Of a DNA stretch of 64,000 bases, positions 21,618 to 56,542 are shown one piece after another. The translations under genes were made by a program, and so were the position numbers. This DNA is from a virus (Duplodnaviria; Caudoviricetes): IMG/VR virus record IMGVR_UViG_3300009155_000035. One strand, 5' to 3'. The notes beneath the pieces are model-generated. The model saw only the letters and a list, made by a program, of their open reading frames with translations. It ran no database searches and was not told the DNA's origin. Numbering within the stretch: position 1 is the first letter of the stretch; each line of letters begins with the position of its first letter.

Positions 21618-22228
21618 TGAAAATACTAATAGTAGGTGACAGTTTTGCATCTGATTGGTCTATAAAGTACAAAGACTATCCGGGCTGGACAAACTTAATA
21701 GCAAATGATTACGATGTAACTATTTTAAGCCAGCCTGGATGCGGGGAATACAAAATTCTCAAACAATTACAATCAGTTAACATTGATCGGTATGACTTGA
21801 TTATAATTTCTCATACAAGCCCTGGTAGAATTCACACACCAAAACATCCTGTACATAGTCAAGACCTGTTGCATAAAAATTCAGATTTAATCTATACAGA
21901 CCTTGAGTATCATGCATTAAAATTTACAAATTTATTCAATAGCTCGTTGTCCACAGCACACGATTTCTTTGTGTATCACTACGATGAAGAGTATTATGAT
22001 CACGTTTATCAGTTACTACGTGACGAAATTACTAAATTGGTTGCATCCCGATCAACGCTGATAGTTAACCACCTGCCTTGCTTGTCCACTTACACCGGCA
22101 GCAACGTCTTGGATTTTTCCCCGATGCTTGAGACCCATCGAGGTATCATCAATCACTTTTCTCAACCTGGCAATCAAATAATTTATCAGGCTGTAAAAAA
22201 ATACATAGAGCAATATTGTGCAACCTAA
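21617..22228 (+). CDS. SGNH-hydrolase-like hypothetical protein
   Basis: VGDSF, PGCG, NHFS..GN motifs. Confidence 0.5.
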   Translation: MKILIVGDSFASDWSIKYKDYPGWTNLIANDYDVTILSQPGCGEYKILKQLQSVNIDRYDLIIISHTSPGRIHTPKHPVHSQDLLHKNSDLIYTDLEYHALKFTNLFNSSLSTAHDFFVYHYDEEYYDHVYQLLRDEITKLVASRSTLIVNHLPCLSTYTGSNVLDFSPMLETHRGIINHFSQPGNQIIYQAVKKYIEQYCAT

Positions 22229-23078
22229 AGATATAAAGTGGATCCATGTCGAAGCAAGTTCTAGGTGCAATGCCAGTTGCCCGGGTTGCTCACGAAACAA
22301 CAATGGATACGGCACGAACCCAGCACTGATTGAAAAAGATATTGACATTGATCAGTACACTGATTTTATAAAACAGTTTCCCAGCCTTGAAGGCATACAG
22401 TTTTGTGGTAATTTGGGCGACCCCATTGCTCATCATGATTTTTTAAAATTAGTAGAAGTTTCAAAACCACTCTGTAAAAAAATACAAATACATTCCAATG
22501 GTGGTCTAAAATCAGCAACTTGGTGGGGCAAGTTGGCCGCATTACTGTCGGGCATAGAACATGACGTTTGGTTTGGGCTTGATGGGATCGGGGAAGTACA
22601 TCAGCAGTATCGTCAAGGAACCAACTTTGATCGTGTTATTGCCAATGCCACTGCATTTATCAATGCCGGTGGTTACGCCACTTGGCAATTTATACCATTC
22701 AAACACAACGAACATCAGATCAAAGATTGCATGCGAATGAGCCAACGGCTTAAATTTAAAAAATTCAAGTTGATACGTTCGTTTAGGTCGGATCTTACCA
22801 TGGTTAGAGACTGGCGTACCGGTGAGTATCTATACGACTTAGAGCCGTCTACTGTAACACAAAAAATATTTTTCAATCCAAAGAAACACCTGGTTGAGTT
22901 TGACCGTTGTATGCACTTGTCAATGCCCAGCATTTACTTGTCATCCACAGGAAAAGCTAGCACATGTTGTTATTTTGTTAACCATGTGTCATTTGATCAA
23001 GTTGATAAACTGTTTGACAGCGTACAAATTGATCTGGCCAACCCTGACCCTGTGTGTTTGAGCAACTGTGGCTCTTGA
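22218..23078 (+). CDS. Radical SAM protein
   Basis: CNASCPGC, CGNLGDP, C-terminal STCC...CLSNC. Confidence 0.85.
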   Translation: MQPKDIKWIHVEASSRCNASCPGCSRNNNGYGTNPALIEKDIDIDQYTDFIKQFPSLEGIQFCGNLGDPIAHHDFLKLVEVSKPLCKKIQIHSNGGLKSATWWGKLAALLSGIEHDVWFGLDGIGEVHQQYRQGTNFDRVIANATAFINAGGYATWQFIPFKHNEHQIKDCMRMSQRLKFKKFKLIRSFRSDLTMVRDWRTGEYLYDLEPSTVTQKIFFNPKKHLVEFDRCMHLSMPSIYLSSTGKASTCCYFVNHVSFDQVDKLFDSVQIDLANPDPVCLSNCGS

Positions 23079-23374: not shown

Positions 23375-24886
23375 ATGATCTTGACTATACTAATGTTTGT
23401 GGTGGCACTATGTCTAAGCGCAGTGGCCGCTTTTTATTCCATTGTGGGCTTGACCGCAATCTTTGCCGCCGCTGTCATGCCCATTGTTCTCATGGGCAGT
23501 ATCCTTGAAGTAGCCAAACTCACAGTCACAGTGTGGTTACACGAGCACTGGGATCGAGCTCGCTGGTTAATGAAGATTTATCTGAGCACAGCAGTGGTAG
23601 TGCTGATGGTAATCACCAGCATGGGCATCTTTGGCTTCTTAAGCAAAGCTCACAGCGATCAAAGCATGGTGTCGGGAGATGTGCAAGCAAAAATTGCAGT
23701 TTACGATGAGAAAATTAAAACATCACGAGAGAACATAGATGCAAACCGCAAAGCACTTAAACAAATGGATGAGGCAGTGGACCAAGTCATGGCAAGAAGC
23801 ACTTCAGAAACGGGTGCAGATAAAGCCGTGGCTCTCCGTAGGACGCAACAAAAGGAACGTCAGCGTCTCCTTGCTGAAATTGAAGCCGAACAGAAAAGAG
23901 TTAGCGTACTTGCTGAAGAGCGAGCGCCGATTGCCGCCGAGGTTAGAAAAGTAGAAGCCGAAGTAGGACCAATAAAATATATCGCCGCATTAATTTACGG
24001 TGATAACACTGATACTAACATGCTTGAAGCCGCGGTTCGTTGGGTCATTATATTATTGGTCATTGTGTTTGACCCTTTGGCTGTGATGATGTTGTTGGCC
24101 GCAACTGAAAGTCGTAAATGGTTGCGTCAAGATCAAACAAAACCTAAATATGAACAAGATGATGGCCCGTTGACTCAAGAGCAAGTTGAACAAATAAAAG
24201 AATCCACTAAAGAAGATTTGCCCATTGGTGAACTAGTAATCAAGGATGAACTATTTCCATCAGACCCATCACCCCCGGGATGGATGTACAACACTACCAC
24301 AACAACATACCCATCCACTGAAGAAGAAGTTGAAGAATTAAAAACCGAATTTGATCGTAGCAAACATGCATACCTTGATCAACAATTTCAACCCTTTGAA
24401 AACTTACAGCCAATGGCACATCGTCCTGAATCAGAAAATGAATCAGATACTGTAACAGACGATGAACATGATTTAGAAGATAATGACGCAGTCAAGCAAG
24501 CCAAGTCACAGTGGAAGATAGATAATCCGGGTGAAACTTTAAAAGAACAGCGTCGATTATTTGAGCGTGGAATCATTGATCGACTGCCTTGGGAAGACTA
24601 CTTGCCAAACCCAGCAGTTGGTAATGTGCCGTTTGGTGAGAAATTCCCAACTGCGCCTGCACGTGGAGATATGTTTACACACGTTGGTTATGTACCTTCT
24701 AAGTTGTACAAATTCAATGGTGAAAAGTGGATTGAAATTATCAAAGACACTACAGATCAATATACATACAATCAGTCTTATATTGATTATTTGATCAATG
24801 CTGTTAGCAGTGGCCATTATGATGCAGACCTTTTAACCGAGGGCGAACAAGCCCAAATTGAATCTCGTTTACAACAGGACAATTAA
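23375..24886 (+). CDS. Membrane protein with coiled coil and acidic C-terminal region
   Basis: Several N-terminal TM segments, long heptad region, FDPLAV; TAAATA 5 nt before ATG. Confidence 0.6.
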   Translation: MILTILMFVVALCLSAVAAFYSIVGLTAIFAAAVMPIVLMGSILEVAKLTVTVWLHEHWDRARWLMKIYLSTAVVVLMVITSMGIFGFLSKAHSDQSMVSGDVQAKIAVYDEKIKTSRENIDANRKALKQMDEAVDQVMARSTSETGADKAVALRRTQQKERQRLLAEIEAEQKRVSVLAEERAPIAAEVRKVEAEVGPIKYIAALIYGDNTDTNMLEAAVRWVIILLVIVFDPLAVMMLLAATESRKWLRQDQTKPKYEQDDGPLTQEQVEQIKESTKEDLPIGELVIKDELFPSDPSPPGWMYNTTTTTYPSTEEEVEELKTEFDRSKHAYLDQQFQPFENLQPMAHRPESENESDTVTDDEHDLEDNDAVKQAKSQWKIDNPGETLKEQRRLFERGIIDRLPWEDYLPNPAVGNVPFGEKFPTAPARGDMFTHVGYVPSKLYKFNGEKWIEIIKDTTDQYTYNQSYIDYLINAVSSGHYDADLLTEGEQAQIESRLQQDN

Positions 24887-47964: not shown

Positions 47965-48108
47965 ATGAAGGTTGTTTATAACAGTTTATTGTCGGGTTGG
48001 TTCATTGTGCGCGGCGCACATCAAACCCCCATCTCGGGACGTTTTGAAACCAAAGAACAGGCCCTGGCCCACTTGCGCCGACGCGACCCTTTTCATACTG
48101 GGTTGTAA
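47965..48108 (+). CDS. Small early protein
   Basis: MKVVYNSLLSGWFIVRG...; start reassigned. Confidence 0.55.
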   Translation: MKVVYNSLLSGWFIVRGAHQTPISGRFETKEQALAHLRRRDPFHTGL

Positions 48109-48156
48109 AAATACAACACATTTCTGGTTGACCAGAAATACATCATTTGCTATAAT
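48102..48156 (+). promoter_or_regulatory. Early promoter with GTTG-N8-CAAC operator
   Basis: GTTG taaaaata CAAC, 10 bp, TTGACC-17-TATAAT. Confidence 0.85.
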
Positions 48157-48188
48157 AGAAACATACAGTAACGAAACAGGAGCGAAGC

Positions 48189-48419
48189 ATGAACGAGCGA
48201 CTAGCTCAACTCAAAGCCGCTACAGAAAAGGTAACTGTTCGTAATCCTGACCAGTTTGCCGAAGTGTTTGGCAGGCTCATGATGAATGATTTAGCAAAGA
48301 TCCTGGAAGACATCCAAAACAACGAAATTGGTGAGGTCAAAATGAACATGGACACTCACTTGGGTTGGCAGATCGCACTTGCTGAAGTTAATGTTAGACT
48401 GCAGAAATATTTCAAATAA
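48189..48419 (+). CDS. Early hypothetical protein
   Basis: AGGAG SD. Confidence 0.6.
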   Translation: MNERLAQLKAATEKVTVRNPDQFAEVFGRLMMNDLAKILEDIQNNEIGEVKMNMDTHLGWQIALAEVNVRLQKYFK

Positions 48420-48430
48420 AGGAGTTTAAA

Positions 48431-48877
48431 ATGGGCACACGTTCAAGAATTGGCGTCATGCATGGCGACATTTGCAAATCAGTTTACTGTCATTGGGACG
48501 GCTATTTGGCTCACAATGGCCAGATCTTGCAAGAGCACTATGACAGTGCCAAGGCCAATAACTTGGTGGCACTAGGCGACTTGTCCACCCTGCGTGAAAA
48601 CGTCATGGTTCCCGATGGTGTTGATCATAGTTTTGAAAAGCCCTTGGCTGGTATCACGGTGTTTTACGGTCGTGACCGTGGCGAGACTGATGTAGAATTC
48701 AAAGTGGCACATTCTTTTGACGAGTTCTTGACACAGGTTGATAACTGTGGTGGCGAGTATTACTATGTCATGCAAAATGGTCAATGGTACTGTGGTAGCA
48801 TGTACGGTGAGCTCAACGGGCGTTTGGTTCTGTTGAGTGAGGCATTGGAATCTCTCAAAGTAGCGGAGGAAGCATGA
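48431..48877 (+). CDS. Early hypothetical protein
   Basis: MGTRSRIG...YCHWDGY; AAGGAG SD. Confidence 0.7.
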   Translation: MGTRSRIGVMHGDICKSVYCHWDGYLAHNGQILQEHYDSAKANNLVALGDLSTLRENVMVPDGVDHSFEKPLAGITVFYGRDRGETDVEFKVAHSFDEFLTQVDNCGGEYYYVMQNGQWYCGSMYGELNGRLVLLSEALESLKVAEEA

Positions 48878-49022
48878 TTCGAGTAATACTTGGACTGATC
48901 ATAGTCATGTCTGGCGTGGGCGGAATTGAAACCAGCACAGATGATTTTGAGCTGTTCTACTCGGCGCTGATAGCAAGTTTTGGTATATTAGTGATGTATA
49001 TTGGTGTAAACACTGTCAAGGA

Positions 49023-49229
49023 GTGATCATGGGTTATCATGTTTTCAAACACAACCAGGAATATAGCCCGCGCCCGGGCCTTGAAGGTCCGTTCCACTAT
49101 CCCAACGGTCAGGTCTTGTACTATGACCCGCGGGCCGGCGAATACTGGGACCCAAGAACCGATTTTTATGTAGATTCTCAAGATGTTGCACGTTTACAAC
49201 AGCAGATCTTTGATGTAATCAGCGGTTGA
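49023..49229 (+). CDS. Early hypothetical protein
   Basis: PGLEGPFHY..GQVLYYDP..GEYWDP; AAGGAG SD. Confidence 0.6.
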   Translation: MIMGYHVFKHNQEYSPRPGLEGPFHYPNGQVLYYDPRAGEYWDPRTDFYVDSQDVARLQQQIFDVISG

Positions 49230-49254
49230 CCAGAAATTCCCATTTTGCTATAAT
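49226..49254 (+). promoter_or_regulatory. Early promoter
   Basis: TTGACC-17-TATAAT in GGTTGACCAGAAAT context. Confidence 0.85.
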
Positions 49255-49284
49255 ACTTGTATTGTAATTAAAAAGGAGTTTGAA

Positions 49285-49611
49285 ATGACTGCACTTGACA
49301 ACATTGAATTCATTCACAACACCGCATTGGCCGAGGCACAGAAGGCCGAAGCTGAATTTCGTGCCCGCCATGGTGAACCTGGCTACTGTGGGTTTGCTTG
49401 GGTTGTAGTACACGAAAAGGCCAGTACCAAGTTGGGTCGTGCATTGAAACAACTGGGTTTCCGCAAAGAGTATGGCGGTGGTTTGAGCCTGTGGAACCCC
49501 GGCGGCAGTTTTACGCAGAGCATGGATATCAAAGAAGCAGGTGCTGAAGCCTACGCCAGTGTTCTACGTCAACATGGCATCAATGCCTACATGTCAAGCC
49601 GTGCTGACTAA
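49285..49611 (+). CDS. Early hypothetical protein
   Basis: YCGFAWV motif; AAGGAG SD. Confidence 0.7.
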   Translation: MTALDNIEFIHNTALAEAQKAEAEFRARHGEPGYCGFAWVVVHEKASTKLGRALKQLGFRKEYGGGLSLWNPGGSFTQSMDIKEAGAEAYASVLRQHGINAYMSSRAD

Positions 49612-49623
49612 TCGGAGATAACA

Positions 49624-49899
49624 ATGACCAATATCAAAGACATCAATTCTGCAATCATGTTTGGTAACTTCACCAACACCGAGCTTATCAGTATCATTGA
49701 TGCTGTGAAATATGCTCGGGCTCAACTCACACAGAAAACCAAACGTAGTCTCATGCTGGGGGACACTGTGAAGTTTACCAGCACCAAGCACGGTATGCCC
49801 ATGCAAGGCACTGTGAACAAGATTGCTATCAAGTACATCACAGTTCGTACCGCACAAGGCTTGTGGCGAGTCCCTGCCAACATGTTGGAAGTTGTATGA
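49624..49899 (+). CDS. Early hypothetical protein (SH3-like C-terminus possible)
   Basis: GDTVKF...GTV.KI..K...WRVPANML. Confidence 0.6.
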   Translation: MTNIKDINSAIMFGNFTNTELISIIDAVKYARAQLTQKTKRSLMLGDTVKFTSTKHGMPMQGTVNKIAIKYITVRTAQGLWRVPANMLEVV

Positions 49900-50116
49900 A
49901 CCAACGAGCTCTAGAGCTTGCAATAGAAGCAGGAATGTATGTTGACGTTAACGGTAACCCGTGGCCCCGATGGATGGGGGCCGAAGAATGTGAGCAGGCT
50001 TACCAAAAGTATGCCGAGTTGATTGTGAGACAATGCGCCCTTACAGCTGGCTTGATGGAACATGAAGGCCGCAAAGGTATTGGCGCACAAATATTAGATA
50101 ATTTTGGAGTTGAAGA

Positions 50117-50362
50117 ATGACACTATCTCAAAAAGACATTGATGAATTGTTGCAGTGGTCAGGTGCCGTGGCAATCATTGCCGGACATGTGCTCAATGCA
50201 GTGGGTCCCGAGGCATATCCTTGGAATATTGCAACCTTTGCTGTGGGCACCGTGATGTTCTTGACATGGGCAATTAGAGTAAACAACAAACCACAGATGC
50301 TGGTCAATGTTGTGGCATTTGCTATCGGACTTGCGGGTTTGGTCAAGGCGTTTGTACAATGA
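50117..50362 (+). CDS. Small membrane protein
   Basis: Three hydrophobic segments. Confidence 0.6.
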   Translation: MTLSQKDIDELLQWSGAVAIIAGHVLNAVGPEAYPWNIATFAVGTVMFLTWAIRVNNKPQMLVNVVAFAIGLAGLVKAFVQ

Positions 50363-50706
50363 AGGTATTTTTAGAAACCACTGAGTGGGAAACAAGCACA
50401 CCCAATCACGTTTACTTCATGGACGATGGTCGAAGCAAAATGTTTGCTTATGTAAAGTTTGGTCAAGGCAAGCCGTTTAAATTCAAAAACCCAATACGCA
50501 TTGACACTAGAGGTCGTAAGTTTAAAGAAGTACCAAATACTTGGAACTTTTCTCTAAAGGAAGATGAACCCGAAGGTCGCGTATGGACAGTAAAAGGCAG
50601 CAAAGGTGATGAGTACACGGTATCAGAAATCAACGGTAACTATTCTTGTACCTGCTCGGGTTTCAAGTTTCGCGGTGACTGTAAACATGTAAAATCCGTG
50701 CAGTAA
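50359..50706 (+). CDS. SWIM zinc-finger protein
   Basis: C-terminal SCTCSGFKFRGDCKHV. Confidence 0.8.
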   Translation: MKVFLETTEWETSTPNHVYFMDDGRSKMFAYVKFGQGKPFKFKNPIRIDTRGRKFKEVPNTWNFSLKEDEPEGRVWTVKGSKGDEYTVSEINGNYSCTCSGFKFRGDCKHVKSVQ

Positions 50707-50718
50707 AATTTTAAACAT

Positions 50719-50742
50719 AAAAATGCCCCTTTCGGGGCATTT
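50719..50742. terminator. Bidirectional terminator (ends the pqqA transcript)
   Basis: AAAAATGCCCC-tttc-GGGGCATTT. Confidence 0.85.
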
Positions 50743-50745
50743 ATA

Positions 50746-50817
50746 TTATCGATTTGCGATATACATTGTGATTTCGAAACCGTAGCGCATTTCAGTTGCT
50801 TCTGGCTTTGTCCACAT
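50746..50817 (-). CDS. pqqA: Pyrroloquinoline quinone precursor peptide PqqA (23 aa, not in ORF track)
   Basis: [23 protein letters not shown] with ExxxY core; AAGGAG SD; -10 TATAAT at 50863-50868; terminator downstream. Confidence 0.92.
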
Positions 50818-50909
50818 AGTAGTTCTCCTTTTAACAAATATACTGCATTAGTATGTACCACTATTATACTGGAGAAACTGCCTATTTCACATAGTGAATA
50901 TCATTAATC

Positions 50910-50987
50910 TTATATCGTTTTTCTACGTATCTCTGTTCGGTAATACTGTTTAGCAGTAAGAATAACAGCACCAATAAACGGAAGCAA
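50910..50987 (-). CDS. Candidate riboswitch-controlled small peptide (25 aa, TTG start)
   Basis: MLPFIGAVILTAKQYYRTEIRRKTI after AAAGGA; SD spacing is short; alternative ORF 50882-51016. Confidence 0.3.
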   Translation of the reverse strand: MLPFIGAVILTAKQYYRTEIRRKTI

Positions 50988-51003
50988 TTTTCCTTTAAAA
51001 AGT

Positions 51004-51089
51004 TATGGTCTCGCATCTTTGTCTGTGTGCCGGACTTGCGTCGTGTTGACGGCACACAGAACCCTTTTACAGGTTAGCTACTCCCCATG
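51004..51089 (-). ncRNA. yybP-ykoY (Mn2+-sensing) riboswitch
   Basis: AUGG-GGAGUAGC ... CUGUGUGCC-GUCAACAC-GAC(GCAA)GUC-C-GGCACACAG ... GCGAGA-CCAU matches the known P1/L1/P3/L3 architecture. Confidence 0.88.
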
Positions 51090-51097
51090 AATATTTA

Positions 51098-51616
51098 TTA
51101 GCTATTCAATACCTTGGCAACACTATTCATAACGCTGGCAATACGACCAATGTCACGAAGCTGTTCTACTGTATAGCCTTCCTTCTTGAGTGTTTCGTAA
51201 TGTGCCTTAACACAGAAATGGCACTTGCCAACAATGCTTGCGGCCAAGCTATAGGCTTCAAATCGAGCTTTAGTTGTGCCGCCATGTGACGCAATAGCAT
51301 TCATACGTAACTGAGCGGGTAGTCCTTTTAGAGCAGGGTCGTCTGCCATTTCAACGTAAGGATACCATACGTTGTTTTGAGCCATGATGCTGGCGGCAGT
51401 AAGGGCGGCATCGGCTTCTTTGCGATCTGCAATCTGGCTATGGACCCATGTCCAAAGCTTGCTGTTGCCTGTGGCAAAAGCCGCCGCCAATGCCACAGCT
51501 TCGGCTTCATCCACAGGCAATGCACTGCGTTTGATCACAGCGTCAATATTGAGCTTGGTATCCTTTGCGTATTCGGGAATACTGGATTCTTTTAATGCGT
51601 CTACCCATTGGGTCAT
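51098..51616 (-). CDS. ahpD: Alkyl hydroperoxide reductase AhpD
   Basis: IPEYAKDTKLN, MAQNNVWY, GKCHFCVKAH. Confidence 0.93.
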   Translation of the reverse strand: MTQWVDALKESSIPEYAKDTKLNIDAVIKRSALPVDEAEAVALAAAFATGNSKLWTWVHSQIADRKEADAALTAASIMAQNNVWYPYVEMADDPALKGLPAQLRMNAIASHGGTTKARFEAYSLAASIVGKCHFCVKAHYETLKKEGYTVEQLRDIGRIASVMNSVAKVLNS

Positions 51617-53046
51617 TTTGTTTCTCCTAAAATAATATTGTGTTTTGCAAATTCATCCACCAGCCAGGGAAAAGTTTTTGGCCAGCTGGTTGATCTACGT
51701 CGATCTAACTCGTTAAGGTACAAATACAAGTTGAATATCTCCTTGACGTTTGGATTACTGCTACAAGACTGTTTGGCAATGCCTTCAAGATACTGACGAC
51801 TAGACAAGTCCTCGGGAGTTGATGTTGGCTTCAGTGCCAGGGCTTTTTCAAAATCTTCTTTGAATATAGCACCAAACATATCAATTGACTGATTGTTTCT
51901 TCCTTGCACAGAATTTTGATAGTGATGAACTCTACGAGTTTTATTCCAGTGATTTATTTTATCTATCAATGTTGGCAAAGTTTTTATGGTAAGCGGTGTT
52001 ACTGTGGAACCAATGATCAAATTGATCCAGTGCTGTGATAACAAATATTCAAAATTTCTTTCCCATACTGTTAGGTTCAAGGGAAAGCGAACATACTCTT
52101 GCTCGGGACCCCAACAATCCAAACTGGCAGTTACTTCAAATTCTCTGAGATGGTTGGTGTCGATTAGTTTCTTCACACGTTCGACTATCTTCACAAGATG
52201 TGGTAATCGTGTGTTTAAATTTGTGAATATTTGCAATTTGAGTTCTGGTGCGGGGTGCTGTTCAAATAAATCCAAGCACTGTTCAAACTCGTCTTGGTAT
52301 AACGGCTCACCACCCAGCACGTTAAACACTGTTAGATTATGTACATTTTTTTTCAGCCACTCAAACAACTTGTTTTTATTGTCTTTGAGGTCTGGGCTCT
52401 TCTTAAAGCTCGGCGATAAGAAACTGGTTTCAAGACTTTCATGTACATACAAACCGTGTTTTTTGTTTTCGGCGTCCCACAGGCTTGAATACAATGGACC
52501 ACAATACATGCATTTTAAGTTGCAGGTATTGTCAAAATAAACTTCAAGTATCCTTGGAGTTACATGCACAGCATGCAGATCAATATCCAGCTCAGGTGGT
52601 GCATGCATTCCGGGGAAGTCTAAGTTGGTGATTCGATCACTGGCACCGCCAACAGCTTCAATGTCACGACAGTATTCACATCCGCCGCCAGGCCACTTCC
52701 CTTCAAGCATTTTTGTTCTTGCTTGCATTTTTTCTGGGGTGTTGTGAAAATCAAATGTGTCGGGATCAAACTTGCTGCCAAATGTTCTATGGCAACTTGA
52801 AGTCATGCCAGTGGTTAAAAACAAAGTGCTCCAGTTCCATTTTAGTTGACACGCTGTAGCAGTTTTAATCGGAAAAATTTTATGTGATAGTTTGGATGAC
52901 TTTTTAAACAAGCCCGGGACATAACCAAACCGAGTCTTGCACTCTTGTTGAATAAGTTCGGGTAAAAATCTAAACTGCTCCTCGGACTCACAGTCGGGCC
53001 AGGACTGATCTCGAATCTCTTGATAAAACTCTTTCCAAGAAGACAT
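51613..53046 (-). CDS. Radical SAM protein with N-terminal twitch-like Cys module
   Basis: TACQLKW..SSCH..CEYC; CNLKCMYC; GGEP. Confidence 0.85.
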   Translation of the reverse strand: MSSWKEFYQEIRDQSWPDCESEEQFRFLPELIQQECKTRFGYVPGLFKKSSKLSHKIFPIKTATACQLKWNWSTLFLTTGMTSSCHRTFGSKFDPDTFDFHNTPEKMQARTKMLEGKWPGGGCEYCRDIEAVGGASDRITNLDFPGMHAPPELDIDLHAVHVTPRILEVYFDNTCNLKCMYCGPLYSSLWDAENKKHGLYVHESLETSFLSPSFKKSPDLKDNKNKLFEWLKKNVHNLTVFNVLGGEPLYQDEFEQCLDLFEQHPAPELKLQIFTNLNTRLPHLVKIVERVKKLIDTNHLREFEVTASLDCWGPEQEYVRFPLNLTVWERNFEYLLSQHWINLIIGSTVTPLTIKTLPTLIDKINHWNKTRRVHHYQNSVQGRNNQSIDMFGAIFKEDFEKALALKPTSTPEDLSSRQYLEGIAKQSCSSNPNVKEIFNLYLYLNELDRRRSTSWPKTFPWLVDEFAKHNIILGETK

Positions 53047-53069
53047 TGATTTTTACCCTTTTGATCTAA

Positions 53070-53609
53070 TTAAAGTGTTTCGCCGCCAACTGTACGATTG
53101 CAAGCACACAGTTCACCTGTTTGCAGTGCATCCAATACACGCAGAGTTTCTTCTGGGCTACGACCAACGTTGAGGTTGTTAACAGTAACGTGCTGAATTT
53201 CGTTGTTAGGATCAACAATGAATGTTGCACGAAGTGCGGCACCTGCAGGAGCATAGAGCACACCTAGTTGTTCAATCAAGCTGAGTTCACCGCGCTGTGT
53301 ATCAGCAAACTGGTGATGTGTGATCTTTTGTAGATCGGGGTGTGCTTTTTGCCATGCTACCTTGCAGAACTCGTTGTCTGTGCTACCCGTTAGCAATACT
53401 GCATCACGGTCGGCAAAATCTTGTGCCAACTTGTCATACGCCACAATTTCAGTGGGGCAAACAAATGTAAAATCTTTTGGATAGTAAACAATTACTTTCC
53501 ACTTGCCTTCAAACGAGCGTTCAGTAATGGTGTAAAAAGCATCTTCTGGTTGCCCAGGACGCACGCCAGTGATGGCAAAAGTGGTGAGTTGGTCGCCTAC
53601 AGTTTTCAT
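53070..53609 (-). CDS. ahpC: Peroxiredoxin AhpC
   Basis: YYPKDFTFVCPTEI, RATFIVD, ELCACN. Confidence 0.95.
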   Translation of the reverse strand: MKTVGDQLTTFAITGVRPGQPEDAFYTITERSFEGKWKVIVYYPKDFTFVCPTEIVAYDKLAQDFADRDAVLLTGSTDNEFCKVAWQKAHPDLQKITHHQFADTQRGELSLIEQLGVLYAPAGAALRATFIVDPNNEIQHVTVNNLNVGRSPEETLRVLDALQTGELCACNRTVGGETL

Positions 53610-53662
53610 TTTTGATTTCCTTTAAGTTAAAAATTGATACTCAGTGTTTGTACTGAGGGTTT

Positions 53663-53714
53663 ATTGTACACATATATATCAATGAAATCAAGCAAAATCT
53701 ATGAATTTGCTTGA
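53663..53714 (-). promoter_or_regulatory. ahpC promoter with overlapping inverted repeat
   Basis: TTGATT-17-TACAAT on minus strand; TCAAGCAAA-N9-TTTGCTTGA (53688-53714) overlaps the -35. Confidence 0.6.
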
Positions 53715-53742
53715 AATTATTTTTATGACGATAATAGACAAA

Positions 53743-53768
53743 ATAAAAGGCGCACCGGCGCCTTTTAT
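53743..53768 (-). terminator. Terminator after the porin gene
   Basis: ATAAAAGGCGC-accg-GCGCCTTTTAT. Confidence 0.8.
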
Positions 53769-53786
53769 CATAAGTGCAATCTAATT

Positions 53787-55064
53787 TTAGAATGCTTTGC
53801 GCATGCCAATTGCAAATGCGTCAATGGCTTGTCCCTTGGCAGGAGCACCTGCTGTCATACCAAAGATTGGGCCCATATTGGCGTTACCTTGGTTGTCAGC
53901 ACGACTATACAATGCAAACACTGCAAACGTTTTAGAAAAATTGTATTGACCATACACAGAAGTCAAGTTAACTTTGTTTGCGTCAACTGTTTTGTCCACA
54001 ACTGCTGTGTACTGTGCGGCAACACGAGTTCGATCATTGACTTTATAACTGACACCAAGAGCATTGGCATCAAAATCATTGCCATACGCAGTACCAACTG
54101 GAGCATTGCGTGCGGCAGTGATAATACCGCTAGCAGAAATGCTCATTGGAGTCGTCATGCAGTTACCACCAGATTTGGTTTCACTGCACTGGCCCCATCG
54201 AGCACCAAAGTAACCATACTTGAATGTAAGGTCTTTATATGTGTATGCGGCACCGGCCATTTGGGTTTTTAGCTGGGTAGCACCGGTGTTGTCGTTAACA
54301 TCTTGTACGCCAACTAGTGCTGAGAATGGACCTTTTTCATATTCGACCACAACGTTGCGTTGACCTTGTTGTTCGAATTCGTTGCTGGCAGTTGGACCAT
54401 TCTGGTTCATTCCCCACATGGCATGAACAGTGACACCGTTGTAAGTTGGTGACTTCCAGCCAATACCGTTGCTGTAGTTGTTGGGACCACCGTTGATACC
54501 GGACACATTCAAGTCTGGATTAAGTGGAGCAACTACACCACTCAACATACGATTACCGGATGAACCGTGTCCGGTCAATGTACCGTTGACTGCACCAATA
54601 CCACCAGAGGCAATACCAAGCGCATCCAAACGTGTGGACATGTAAAATTGTGGAGTCAATTGACGTCCAAGTGTAAAGTTACCAACTGTTGGTGTGATTA
54701 TTTCCAAGTTGGCTTTGCGATAAAACAACGAGGTAGAACCACCCGAAATAGCATAACCATTACCAGGGTTGGTACCACCAACACCGCTTAACGACGAGCT
54801 AACATTACCACTGTTGGTATTAACTGCGGTTTCCAAGTTAACTGATGCTTTGTACCCACCAGCAATGTCGTGTGTTCCACGGAAGCCCAATGAGCTGTTG
54901 CCTAAAACAGAACTGGACATATTAAATGCGTTGAGTCCCGGGGCATTGTGTGCAACACCGGCAATATTCAAATTGCCATAAATTTGAAGTGGTGCTTCTT
55001 GCGACTGCGCCTGCGCAGTAGAGAACCCCGCGGCAATAAGCAGAGGTAGAAGTAGTTTTTTCAT
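53787..55064 (-). CDS. Gram-negative outer-membrane porin
   Basis: Signal peptide, LQIYG, SSLGFRGTHDI, LGRQ, C-terminal GMRKAF. Confidence 0.88.
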   Translation of the reverse strand: MKKLLLPLLIAAGFSTAQAQSQEAPLQIYGNLNIAGVAHNAPGLNAFNMSSSVLGNSSLGFRGTHDIAGGYKASVNLETAVNTNSGNVSSSLSGVGGTNPGNGYAISGGSTSLFYRKANLEIITPTVGNFTLGRQLTPQFYMSTRLDALGIASGGIGAVNGTLTGHGSSGNRMLSGVVAPLNPDLNVSGINGGPNNYSNGIGWKSPTYNGVTVHAMWGMNQNGPTASNEFEQQGQRNVVVEYEKGPFSALVGVQDVNDNTGATQLKTQMAGAAYTYKDLTFKYGYFGARWGQCSETKSGGNCMTTPMSISASGIITAARNAPVGTAYGNDFDANALGVSYKVNDRTRVAAQYTAVVDKTVDANKVNLTSVYGQYNFSKTFAVFALYSRADNQGNANMGPIFGMTAGAPAKGQAIDAFAIGMRKAF

Positions 55065-55289
55065 TTCGTTTCCTTTTGATTTGAATTCACGACAACTGTC
55101 GAAGTCGTATTATATTATATAGCACACTTAGAAAGTATACAAGAAATTTACTGTCGTGTGGAAAAATTATTTAGGTATGCTTCACCAAAACTACGGTATT
55201 TGGCAAGATCTATGCTTGTTTTATTCTGCGATCTGTTATAAACTAGAATCACGATGCAAGGACATCGACTTAAATTAAAGGAACTTTTT

Positions 55290-55559
55290 ATGAAACACAT
55301 GAATCCAGAAACCAAAACTTTCAAGGTCTTCTCTGCCCTACGCAACGGCGAGAGTCTTACTCCTGCCGAAGCCAAAAAGCGTTTTGGTGTAGGTAACTTG
55401 GCTGCCGAAGCCAGCCGTATTCGTCAGCATGGCTTTGCTGTTTACGCCAACAGCCGTAAAGCAGGTAATGGTGTTCAGGTCACTGAGTATGTAATTGGCA
55501 AGCCAAGCCGTAAAATTGTAGCCGCTGGTTACAAGGCCTTGGCTTTAGGTTTGGTCTAA
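55290..55559 (+). CDS. Winged-helix DNA-binding protein
   Basis: GESLTPAEAKKRFGVGNLAAEASRIRQHG; AAGGA SD. Confidence 0.6.
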   Translation: MKHMNPETKTFKVFSALRNGESLTPAEAKKRFGVGNLAAEASRIRQHGFAVYANSRKAGNGVQVTEYVIGKPSRKIVAAGYKALALGLV

Positions 55560-55595
55560 CCCACTCGCTGAACTGCCCAAACAGTTCACAATGTG

Positions 55596-55622
55596 AAAAA
55601 GCCACCGCCCCGGTGGCTTTTT
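55596..55622. terminator. Terminator
   Basis: AAAAAGCCACCG-ccc-CGGTGGCTTTTT. Confidence 0.85.
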
Positions 55623-55636
55623 CTTTAAATAGTGCA

Positions 55637-56542
55637 ATGAATATTACAGGATTTCACATAGAGCCCACTAACATGTGTACACTTAAATGTGCTGGGTGTG
55701 CTCGCACCAGATTTATCGATCAATGGCCACAGCACTGGCGCAATCAAAATTTGAGTATCACCGCCCTGACGCAATTCCTTGATATCGATATAACAGGGTT
55801 GTCAGTAGATTTTTGTGGTGATTATGGTGATCCTATCTATCATCCTGAATTTATTGAGATGGTCAGGGCAGTCAAGCAACGCGGGGCACGAGTTACCATT
55901 ACTACCAATGGCAGTTATCACAAAGCTGATTGGTGGCAGGAGTTATGTAATCACCTAGATGGTGTTGACATCATCAGATTTAGCATAGACGGTCTTCCCG
56001 ATAACTTTACTCAGTATCGTAAAAATGCCGACTGGGAATCAATTAAAGTGGGAATTGATGTGTGCAGAAAAAATACAGTTCAACTGGTCTGGAAATTTAT
56101 TCCGTTTGCCTACAACTATTGTCAAATTGATCAAGCACAACAGTTGGCTACTAATTTAGGCATGCAATTTGCTCTGGACGCCAGCGATAGGTTTGATGCA
56201 GTTACTATGCACTACCGGCCACCTGCTGAGTTCTTGCGCAGTAGGTCACATGTGCAGGAACAAGTTAAACAAGGAATCCAACACACAGTAACACCCAAGT
56301 GTAGTAATGGCAGGATGCACTACATTTCGGCAAGTGGGCATTATGTTTCATGTTGCTATCTAGCCGATCATAGATTTTACTACAAAACTGATTTTGGAAA
56401 GAACAAGCAGTCTTATCAAATTGATCAAACCACTCTTACCCAACTAATCAATCAATCAAGGATGGTCGAATTTTATCAAAGCATTGATACAAGTCCACAT
56501 ATTGCATGCCAATTTAACTGCCCAACCACAAAAACATCTTGA
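55637..56542 (+). CDS. Radical SAM protein
   Basis: CTLKCAGC, CGDYGDP, SCC...CQFNC; start reassigned 5 nt after TAAATA. Confidence 0.85.
   Translation: MNITGFHIEPTNMCTLKCAGCARTRFIDQWPQHWRNQNLSITALTQFLDIDITGLSVDFCGDYGDPIYHPEFIEMVRAVKQRGARVTITTNGSYHKADWWQELCNHLDGVDIIRFSIDGLPDNFTQYRKNADWESIKVGIDVCRKNTVQLVWKFIPFAYNYCQIDQAQQLATNLGMQFALDASDRFDAVTMHYRPPAEFLRSRSHVQEQVKQGIQHTVTPKCSNGRMHYISASGHYVSCCYLADHRFYYKTDFGKNKQSYQIDQTTLTQLINQSRMVEFYQSIDTSPHIACQFNCPTTKTS

Follow-up and report, generated by a model that had tools for sequence, protein, structure and literature searches.

The 23-codon open reading frame (ORF) on the minus strand at positions 50746-50817 of a 64,000-nucleotide stretch of viral DNA (IMG/VR record IMGVR_UViG_3300009155_000035; Duplodnaviria, Caudoviricetes), called the window below whenever the whole stretch is meant, is a genuine stand-alone pqqA gene carried by a phage, and it probably serves, as far as sequence can tell, as an auxiliary metabolic gene that supplies the consumable precursor of pyrroloquinoline quinone (PQQ) to the host enzymes PqqB, PqqC, PqqD, and PqqE. 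The evidence for identity is direct. The 23 codons, followed by TAA, encode a peptide that matches the NCBIfam equivalog model TIGR02107 at 38.2 bits (cut-off 20; E 8.8e-10) over model positions 1-21 of 21, and PF08042 at 35 bits (cut-off 21.1) over model positions 1-19 of 19. Residues Glu15 and Tyr19 of PqqA are the two that are cross-linked and turned into PQQ, and the phage peptide retains the Glu15-x3-Tyr19 spacing as EITMY (E15-I-T-M-Y19). An earlier note, made by a reader of the letters alone, had picked out this ORF by its ExxxY motif and had proposed a search with the pqqA hidden Markov model (HMM); the motif is where the note placed it, and the search returns the full-length match just described.

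That the ORF belongs to a family of coding sequences is also apparent from its relatives. A degenerate DNA pattern for E-M-R-[FY]-G-F-E-[VI]-T-M-Y, scanned over IMG/VR, found pqqA in at least 120 contigs; all 120 matches listed have an intact ORF, and no pqqB, pqqC, pqqD, or pqqE lies in the available flanks of any of them. Among the matches listed, the 107 unique 23-codon copies show a minor-allele fraction of 0.25 at third codon positions and 0.05-0.06 at first and second positions, so that third positions are about five times as variable, a comparison in which part of the sequence was fixed beforehand by the search pattern. A predicted fold of the phage PqqA together with PqqD from a Burkholderiales genome, used as a proxy, scored 0.52 against 0.03 for the best control, within the range up to 0.60 in which we rate a pass as weak; in the calibration, 51 of 78 solved complexes attained that mark, as did 2 of 108 mismatched pairs, but none of its proteins was shorter than 30 residues and PqqA has 23. 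The predicted interface would involve peptide residues 1-12, the leader.

The gene resides within a very large freshwater tailed phage genome rather than in a host flank. The window codes for a class I ribonucleotide reductase, an ATP-dependent DNA ligase, a ClpX-like ATPase, a pectate-lyase-type tail-spike-like protein, and an endolysin-like protein; PHROG families, several of them of no known function, flank pqqA on both sides, along with phage functions recognized by Pfam. A phage-specific protein of 503 amino acids (aa) belonging to no known family (23375-24886) is 54-62% identical in four IMG/VR contigs, whose lengths are 356 kb (CheckV completeness 96%), 316 kb (91%), 210 kb, and 96 kb, and the window DNA occurs in a single public run, which is a freshwater metagenome. 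These phage genes, the large related contigs, and the freshwater run together place pqqA in a large freshwater tailed phage. A megablast search of positions 48000-56000 against GenBank phages gave no match.

Nor does the phage appear to carry any other part of the pathway. The earlier note had seen no pqqB, pqqC, or pqqD in the window, and this holds: when the PqqB, PqqC, PqqD, and PqqE proteins encoded by the pqq operon of a Burkholderiales genome were searched against the window by tblastn, nothing better than E 0.009 was returned, and that hit is to the generic core of another radical S-adenosylmethionine (SAM) gene. With no pqqB-E after it, the gene is an orphan copy and not a member of a pqqABCDE operon. 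No PQQ-dependent dehydrogenase was found in the window. Of the related phages, G406 (356 kb, 96% complete) and G410 contain pqqA, but none was found in G407 (316 kb, 91% complete), and neither pqqC nor pqqD was found in the related phage contigs, G406 included, by a search that recovered pqqC from a control bacterial genome at 342 bits. We conclude from this distribution that pqqA is accessory in this clade and is its only pqq gene.

Stand-alone viral pqqA is already published and widespread, so that the present case is a further example and not a discovery. Virus-encoded PqqA was described in Lake Baikal methylotroph phages, where it was proposed to support methanol oxidation by the host (Coutinho et al. 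2020, Microbiome 8:163, PMC7678222). When we searched GenBank phages with the peptide by tblastn, 12 records matched: ten, at 70-74% identity, are cultured Methylophilales or Methylophilaceae phages or an uncultured podovirus, the cultured records being MEP301, MEP401, MEP402, Venkman, P19250A, and four Melnitz genomes; the two others match more weakly (59%) and are records of Acinetobacter phage. In four of these loci (L127-L130; MZ577095, MW202481, MT375522, and KX815270) pqqA is unannotated, or only a hypothetical ORF on the opposite strand is annotated, and in Melnitz the gene lies between a hypothetical gene and tRNA-Leu.

The pqqA gene has the appearance of a self-contained expression cassette. 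A Shine-Dalgarno sequence, AAGGAG, lies at 50825-50830 (minus strand), 7 nt 5′ of the ATG, and is kept in the cassettes of sister phages. A -10 box, TATAAT, lies at 50863-50868 (minus strand); it was found by a promoter scan, and both it and the first transcribed bases are kept in the sister phages. The earlier note had listed both elements; on the minus strand they read from 50830 to 50825 and from 50868 to 50863. The -35-like hexamer GTGAAA at 50885-50890 (minus strand) is weak and is T-rich in the sisters; TATAAT and GTGAAA, spaced by 16 nt, match the consensus at 10 of 12 positions and form the top promoter-like site of the region. Downstream, a strong intrinsic terminator at 50721-50742 (minus strand) consists of a 9-bp GC-rich stem, a GAAA loop, and a T run; the stem is the same in the sister cassettes, and one base of the loop differs. 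Convergent with pqqA, a gene at 50359-50706 (plus strand) encodes a SWIM zinc-finger protein of 115 aa and ends 15 nt beyond the terminator; homologs of this protein at 39-44% identity are found in two other pqqA-bearing viral contigs (L207 and L239).

PQQ biosynthesis uses up one PqqA for every PQQ made, and PqqB, PqqC, PqqD, and PqqE act as catalysts, a well-established point for which PMC7678222 and PMC9851590 give references. A cassette with a sigma-70-like promoter, a short leader, a strong ribosome-binding site (RBS), 23 codons, and an intrinsic terminator would then allow extra PqqA to be made during infection; the additional peptide would feed host PqqD, PqqE, PqqB, and PqqC; the supply of PQQ to periplasmic quinoprotein dehydrogenases of the host would be kept up or raised, providing energy for phage production; and a strongly expressed phage pqqA could raise precursor supply in this way without the phage carrying the pathway. 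Here transcription, translation, acceptance of the peptide by host enzymes, and a rise in PQQ are steps that we infer. The earlier note had proposed just such a supply of substrate, and the proposal is supported by a true PqqA set among phage genes with no other pqq gene, and by the published reading of viral PqqA (PMC7678222). High expression of pqqA goes with high PQQ yield (PMC9851590).

Several points weigh against this view of the gene as a supplier of precursor. Tyr12 and Ile16 of the phage peptide are both unusual, since among the matches listed Phe occupies the first position in 99 of 107 viral copies and Val the second in 102 of 107. The only public run that contains the window DNA is a DNA run; pqqB-E outside the window are excluded only through a relative; and the host is one that we infer, PQQ-producing Burkholderiales (betaproteobacteria as formerly defined) being the likeliest candidates. 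Finally, we know of no experiment showing that a phage PqqA leads to PQQ, or that PqqA limits PQQ in infected cells.

The neighborhood of the gene suggests another possibility. Upstream of pqqA lie an ahpD-like gene at 51098-51616 (minus strand), which belongs to the CMD family, carries the CxxC motif CHFC, and matches TIGR00777 (E 7e-32) and PF02627, and an ahpC-type peroxiredoxin gene at 53070-53609 (minus strand), which is the first gene of the upstream operon and matches TIGR03137 (E 1e-31) and PF00578. The order ahpC-ahpD-pqqA recurs in four sister contigs (L005 and L006 from IMG/VR, L125 and L126 from metagenomes), whose AhpC is 91% and AhpD about 75% identical in amino acid sequence to that of the window, and in L231, whose PqqA is 83% identical; ahpD is thus the conserved upstream neighbor of pqqA in the sister phages. 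In a second lineage, represented by L247 (228-945) and L152 (3885-4601), two related contigs of 71% nucleotide identity, pqqA is followed directly by the gene for another AhpC-type peroxiredoxin (193-198 aa), which shares only 30-32% identity with the AhpC of the window, in what looks like an independent pairing of pqqA with a peroxiredoxin.

The recurrence of ahpC-ahpD-pqqA and the separate pairing in the second lineage would both be expected if pqqA acted with ahpC and ahpD as a module for redox protection, serving the peroxide tolerance of the infected cell and not its dehydrogenase capacity; the extra PQQ might be an antioxidant, or AhpC and AhpD might shield PQQ synthesis, and it fits such a scheme that the Fe-S clusters of PqqE are oxygen-sensitive and that PqqC releases H2O2. 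Yet i) ahpC-ahpD pairs occur without pqqA in the related contigs L011, L013, L016, and L017; ii) most of the 120 listed viral pqqA loci have no peroxiredoxin nearby; iii) pqqA has a promoter and a terminator of its own; iv) chance often brings auxiliary genes together in variable regions; and v) the bacterial loci among the 80 compared have no pqqA within 4 kb of ahpC. We therefore regard peroxide tolerance as quite unlikely to be the role of the phage gene. A more general proposal is that ahpC-ahpD-pqqA constitutes a conserved redox module in a giant freshwater phage clade, coupling peroxide removal to PQQ supply, with the pqqA cassette held near-identical by repeated exchange or codon selection and with a second lineage having independently paired pqqA with a different peroxiredoxin; this too we consider unlikely.

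The near-identity of the cassette is striking in its own right. Three of the four sister contigs match the pqqA coding sequence (CDS) of the window at every one of its 72 bases, and L126 has one nonsynonymous change; a sister phage with the identical pqqA has only 79% identity to the window in the flanking ahpC and 71% in ahpD. Where a degenerate codon specifies the same amino acid in the window and in the sisters, the codons differ in 42-48% of cases in ahpC and ahpD, and in 0/19, 0/18, and 2/15 in pqqA; the probability of 0/19 at the ahpC/ahpD rate is about 6e-6. The patch of identity covers 116 bp (50716-50831), from RBS to terminator, with 4 mismatches, none of them in the CDS. Two explanations remain for this low synonymous divergence: one is that the mini-cassette was exchanged recently, among co-infecting phages or with a host copy; the other is selection acting on codons or on the mRNA, for which it may be relevant that pqqA would be a tiny, heavily translated gene. 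That the value is low for L231 as well, though its peptide differs at 4 residues, argues against exchange as a complete explanation.

Recent transfer is what one would expect if pqqA were a passenger of little or no function, a mobile mini-cassette acquired from a host or a co-infecting phage and not yet lost, and both the 72/72 identity beside diverged ahpC and ahpD and the absence of the gene from G407 would fit. A passenger is nonetheless improbable, because several lineages of the clade, and over 100 other viral contigs, carry the gene intact and with its expression signals conserved, and because it varies as a gene under purifying selection does; DNA without function is not kept in this way in phages.

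Could the peptide instead interfere with PQQ synthesis? The two unusual residues beside the cross-linked Glu are compatible with a decoy or inhibitor, a variant peptide (Tyr12, Ile16) that binds host PqqD or PqqE unproductively and turns PQQ synthesis off, and the very low synonymous divergence could reflect constraint on a transcript that acts as a regulatory RNA. Either is very improbable: the peptide preserves Glu15, Tyr19, and the entire leader and matches the HMM from end to end, while other phages carry the common Phe12 and Val16; and, for the RNA, the third-position variation across phages is typical of coding sequence and a search of Rfam gave no match at pqqA or upstream of it.

The earlier note had also raised the possibility that a phage radical SAM enzyme converts PqqA into a new ribosomally synthesized peptide carrying post-translational modifications (RiPP). 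The window does contain three radical SAM genes, at 22218-23078, 51613-53046, and 55613-56542, one of them upstream of pqqA. That one (51613-53046, minus strand) encodes an N-terminal-twitch radical SAM protein of 477 aa that scores 216.6 bits against NF033640 (cut-off 170); the gene is flanked by ahpC and ahpD, and its stop codon overlaps the start of ahpD. Since ahpC and ahpD abut in all ten related contigs examined (L005, L006, L011, L012, L013, L016, L017, L125, L126, and L231), the radical SAM gene is an insertion found in this phage alone and lies outside the pqqA unit. The sister phages keep ahpC-ahpD-pqqA without it, and none of pqqA, ahpC, and ahpD is found within 6 kb of its viral homologs (58-63% identity, L001-L004). 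The other two genes (22218-23078 and 55613-56542, plus strand) are short radical SAM genes (286 and 309 aa) with weak matches to named subfamilies. None of the three resembles PqqE: the best PqqE score among them is 25 bits against a cut-off of 381; Pfam finds only Radical_SAM and Fer4_12 in the three, with no SPASM domain, and only a weak Radical_SAM core in the product of 51613-53046, which thus lacks the PqqE score, the SPASM domain, and the PqqD or RiPP recognition element (RRE) partner of a PqqE-type enzyme; and no PqqD-like recognition protein is present in the window or in the relatives. Cultured pqqA phages, moreover, include some of 35-44 kb, although radical SAM genes were not searched for there. 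With no PqqE-type enzyme, no PqqD, and a neighboring radical SAM gene that is a phage-specific insertion, a new RiPP made from PqqA is unsupported and scarcely credible.

Which host would accept the precursor? We compared the phage PqqA with 401 genomes of the order Burkholderiales as defined by GTDB and found a PqqA match in 108 of the 401 (a tally that includes the unpublished genome G299, on which none of our conclusions depends). The best bacterial matches are 87% identical and share the YIANR end; in the genome examined, this copy heads a pqqABCDE operon, and a second pqqA copy lies about 5 kb away. Four small genomes of this YIANR type (1.8-2.1 Mb) encode PQQ alcohol dehydrogenases above the TIGR03075 cut-off, and no hexulose-phosphate synthase of the ribulose monophosphate (RuMP) pathway was found in those four; a genome with six pqqA copies (83% identity, YVCNR end) contains both a PQQ alcohol dehydrogenase and the RuMP hexulose-phosphate synthase. 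The OM43-like genomes of 1.3 Mb and their phages have a YVMNK end at 70-74% identity, and phage PqqA copies tend to match the peptide type of the host. The peptide type of the window therefore points, weakly, away from Methylophilaceae and toward some other PQQ-using freshwater member of the Burkholderiales. This clue cannot carry much weight: it comes down to one or two residues of a 23-mer, and close relatives of the window phage end otherwise, for example in YVMNR.

AhpC likewise points to Burkholderiales, its nearest cultured genomes being those of Oxalobacteraceae and Cupriavidus (65-69%). The closest AhpC matches of all, at 80-90%, are on short contigs binned in taxonomically scattered metagenome-assembled genomes (MAGs); at least two of them, L011 and L014, also carry homologs of other window ORFs, and the AhpC-matching MAG contigs are for that reason probably mis-binned phage DNA. 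A near-identical DNA donor of the cassette was not found in the 401 Burkholderiales genomes, where the best nucleotide identity is only about 80-84%, and so no recent donor can be named among them. The window also encodes a very divergent Gram-negative porin (53787-55064, minus strand; PF13609) with a signal peptide and a C-terminal Phe, which has no match at E ≤ 1e-10 in the same 401 genomes. The PQQ-dependent betaproteobacterial host suggested in the earlier note fits the 87% match to a Burkholderiales PqqA, but its qualification of that host as possibly methylotrophic finds no specific support, four small genomes checked among the best matches having PQQ alcohol dehydrogenases and no RuMP hexulose-phosphate synthase.

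The region upstream of the cassette holds further elements. The leader contains an inverted repeat, ATACT-AATGC-AGTAT (50840-50854, minus strand), close to the predicted 5′ end of the transcript. In the relatives L005, L126, L134, L154, and L231 the stem CATACT/AGTATG has 6 bp and the loop 5, 11, or 12 nt; in four of these five the stem extends to 7 bp (ACATACT/AGTATGT), and the window has a weakened version of 5 bp. The sequence G-R-TACATACT begins 3 bases after the -10 box in the sister group and opens this inverted repeat. A loose version of the leader-repeat pattern has 3 matches across the window, and only that at 50840-50854 stands at a cassette. A stem at the extreme 5′ end of a transcript is a known stabilizer of mRNA, and the leader stem may have such a role; the repeat at 50840-50854 is absent from the minimum-free-energy fold of the window's own leader.

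Farther upstream, about 32 nt from the -10 box, is a TTAATGAT box (50900-50907, minus strand). Of the 114 unique viral cassettes among the matches listed, 43 have AATGAT in the 150 nt upstream of pqqA, where the background is about 9%, and its positions cluster at -92 to -61 from the ATG; of 21 bacterial copies, one has it.

The palindrome TTCAC-N3-GTGAA, to which the earlier note had drawn attention at the -35 position, is indeed present at 50886-50898, its right arm overlapping the -35-like hexamer, but it is specific to the window and not a conserved part of the pqqA cassette: it is missing from the sister cassettes, in which T-rich sequence replaces the right arm, and no exact copy was found in about 1.05 Mb of other viral pqqA loci among the matches listed. 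We accordingly reject it as a conserved operator. Within the window there are two exact copies where 0.14 would be expected. The other copy (55585-55597) is bounded on one side by the stop codon of a winged-helix gene and on the other by a terminator-like hairpin; this gene (55254-55559, plus strand) encodes a PF14090 protein of 101 aa, the palindrome copy beginning 26 nt past its stop. Homologs of the PF14090 protein are encoded 3.6-5.6 kb from pqqA in L159, L185, L192, and L234. The winged-helix protein may be a candidate regulator of the pqqA promoter of the window.

Two further candidates in the spacer between ahpD and pqqA were set aside. A 57-codon ORF at 50882-51055 is treated as spurious, because it overlaps the pqqA promoter region and because only about 120 bp separate ahpD from pqqA in the sister phages, not enough to accommodate it. 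A yybP-ykoY Mn riboswitch at 51004-51097 was rejected, there being no Rfam match even at E ≤ 10 in a search space of 311 bases. An element at 50990-51100 (minus strand), 3′ of ahpD, folds better than shuffled sequences (z -2.67) around an 11-bp hairpin, and some 160 bp containing it are lacking in the sister phages.

If phage pqqA does supply precursor, a virus could raise the cofactor output of its host by providing only the component that is consumed. Gene callers miss an ORF of 23 codons, and this auxiliary gene is consequently under-counted in viromes. The present case leaves the established picture unchanged, but extends the known range of viral pqqA to a clade of freshwater phages of 316-356 kb and suggests a host that is perhaps not a methylotroph of the Methylophilaceae. 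Particular to it are the linkage of ahpC, ahpD, and pqqA, the near-absence of synonymous change in pqqA, and this perhaps non-methylotrophic host.

Four known systems come closest to the phage gene. The operonic PqqA of Burkholderiales (for example in G120) shows the highest identity that we found, 87% (20 of 23 residues), and the same YIANR end; unlike the phage gene it heads pqqBCDE, and its nucleotide identity is only about 80-84%. Methylophilaceae carry 3-12 copies of pqqA for a single pqqBCDE set (PMC4109929), and the orphan copies among them, monocistronic and away from pqqBCDE like the phage gene, are a bacterial precedent for raising the dosage of the precursor alone; those copies are chromosomal and not viral, and the peptide of the multi-copy, RuMP-positive genome G139 has a YVCNR end and is 83% identical. 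The cultured Methylophilales phages (Venkman, Melnitz, MEP301, MEP401, MEP402, and P19250A) resemble the window phage in having a stand-alone pqqA, of 23-24 codons and 70-74% identity, but they are marine or lake phages of OM43/LD28 with genomes of 35-142 kb, their PqqA ends in YVMNK or YIMTR, as does the OM43-type host copy, where that of the window ends in YIANR, and at the four cultured-phage pqqA loci that we read ahpC-ahpD is absent from beside the gene. The viral PqqA of Lake Baikal (PMC7678222) belongs to a population assigned to Methylophilaceae hosts and was discussed together with a viral methanol dehydrogenase, whereas the window has no dehydrogenase, and the window phage differs from the Baikal phage in its membership of a 316-356 kb clade, its YIANR-end peptide, and the position of pqqA behind ahpC-ahpD; in both cases, the precursor gene stands on the genome of an uncultured freshwater phage and is read as an auxiliary gene for the PQQ of the host.

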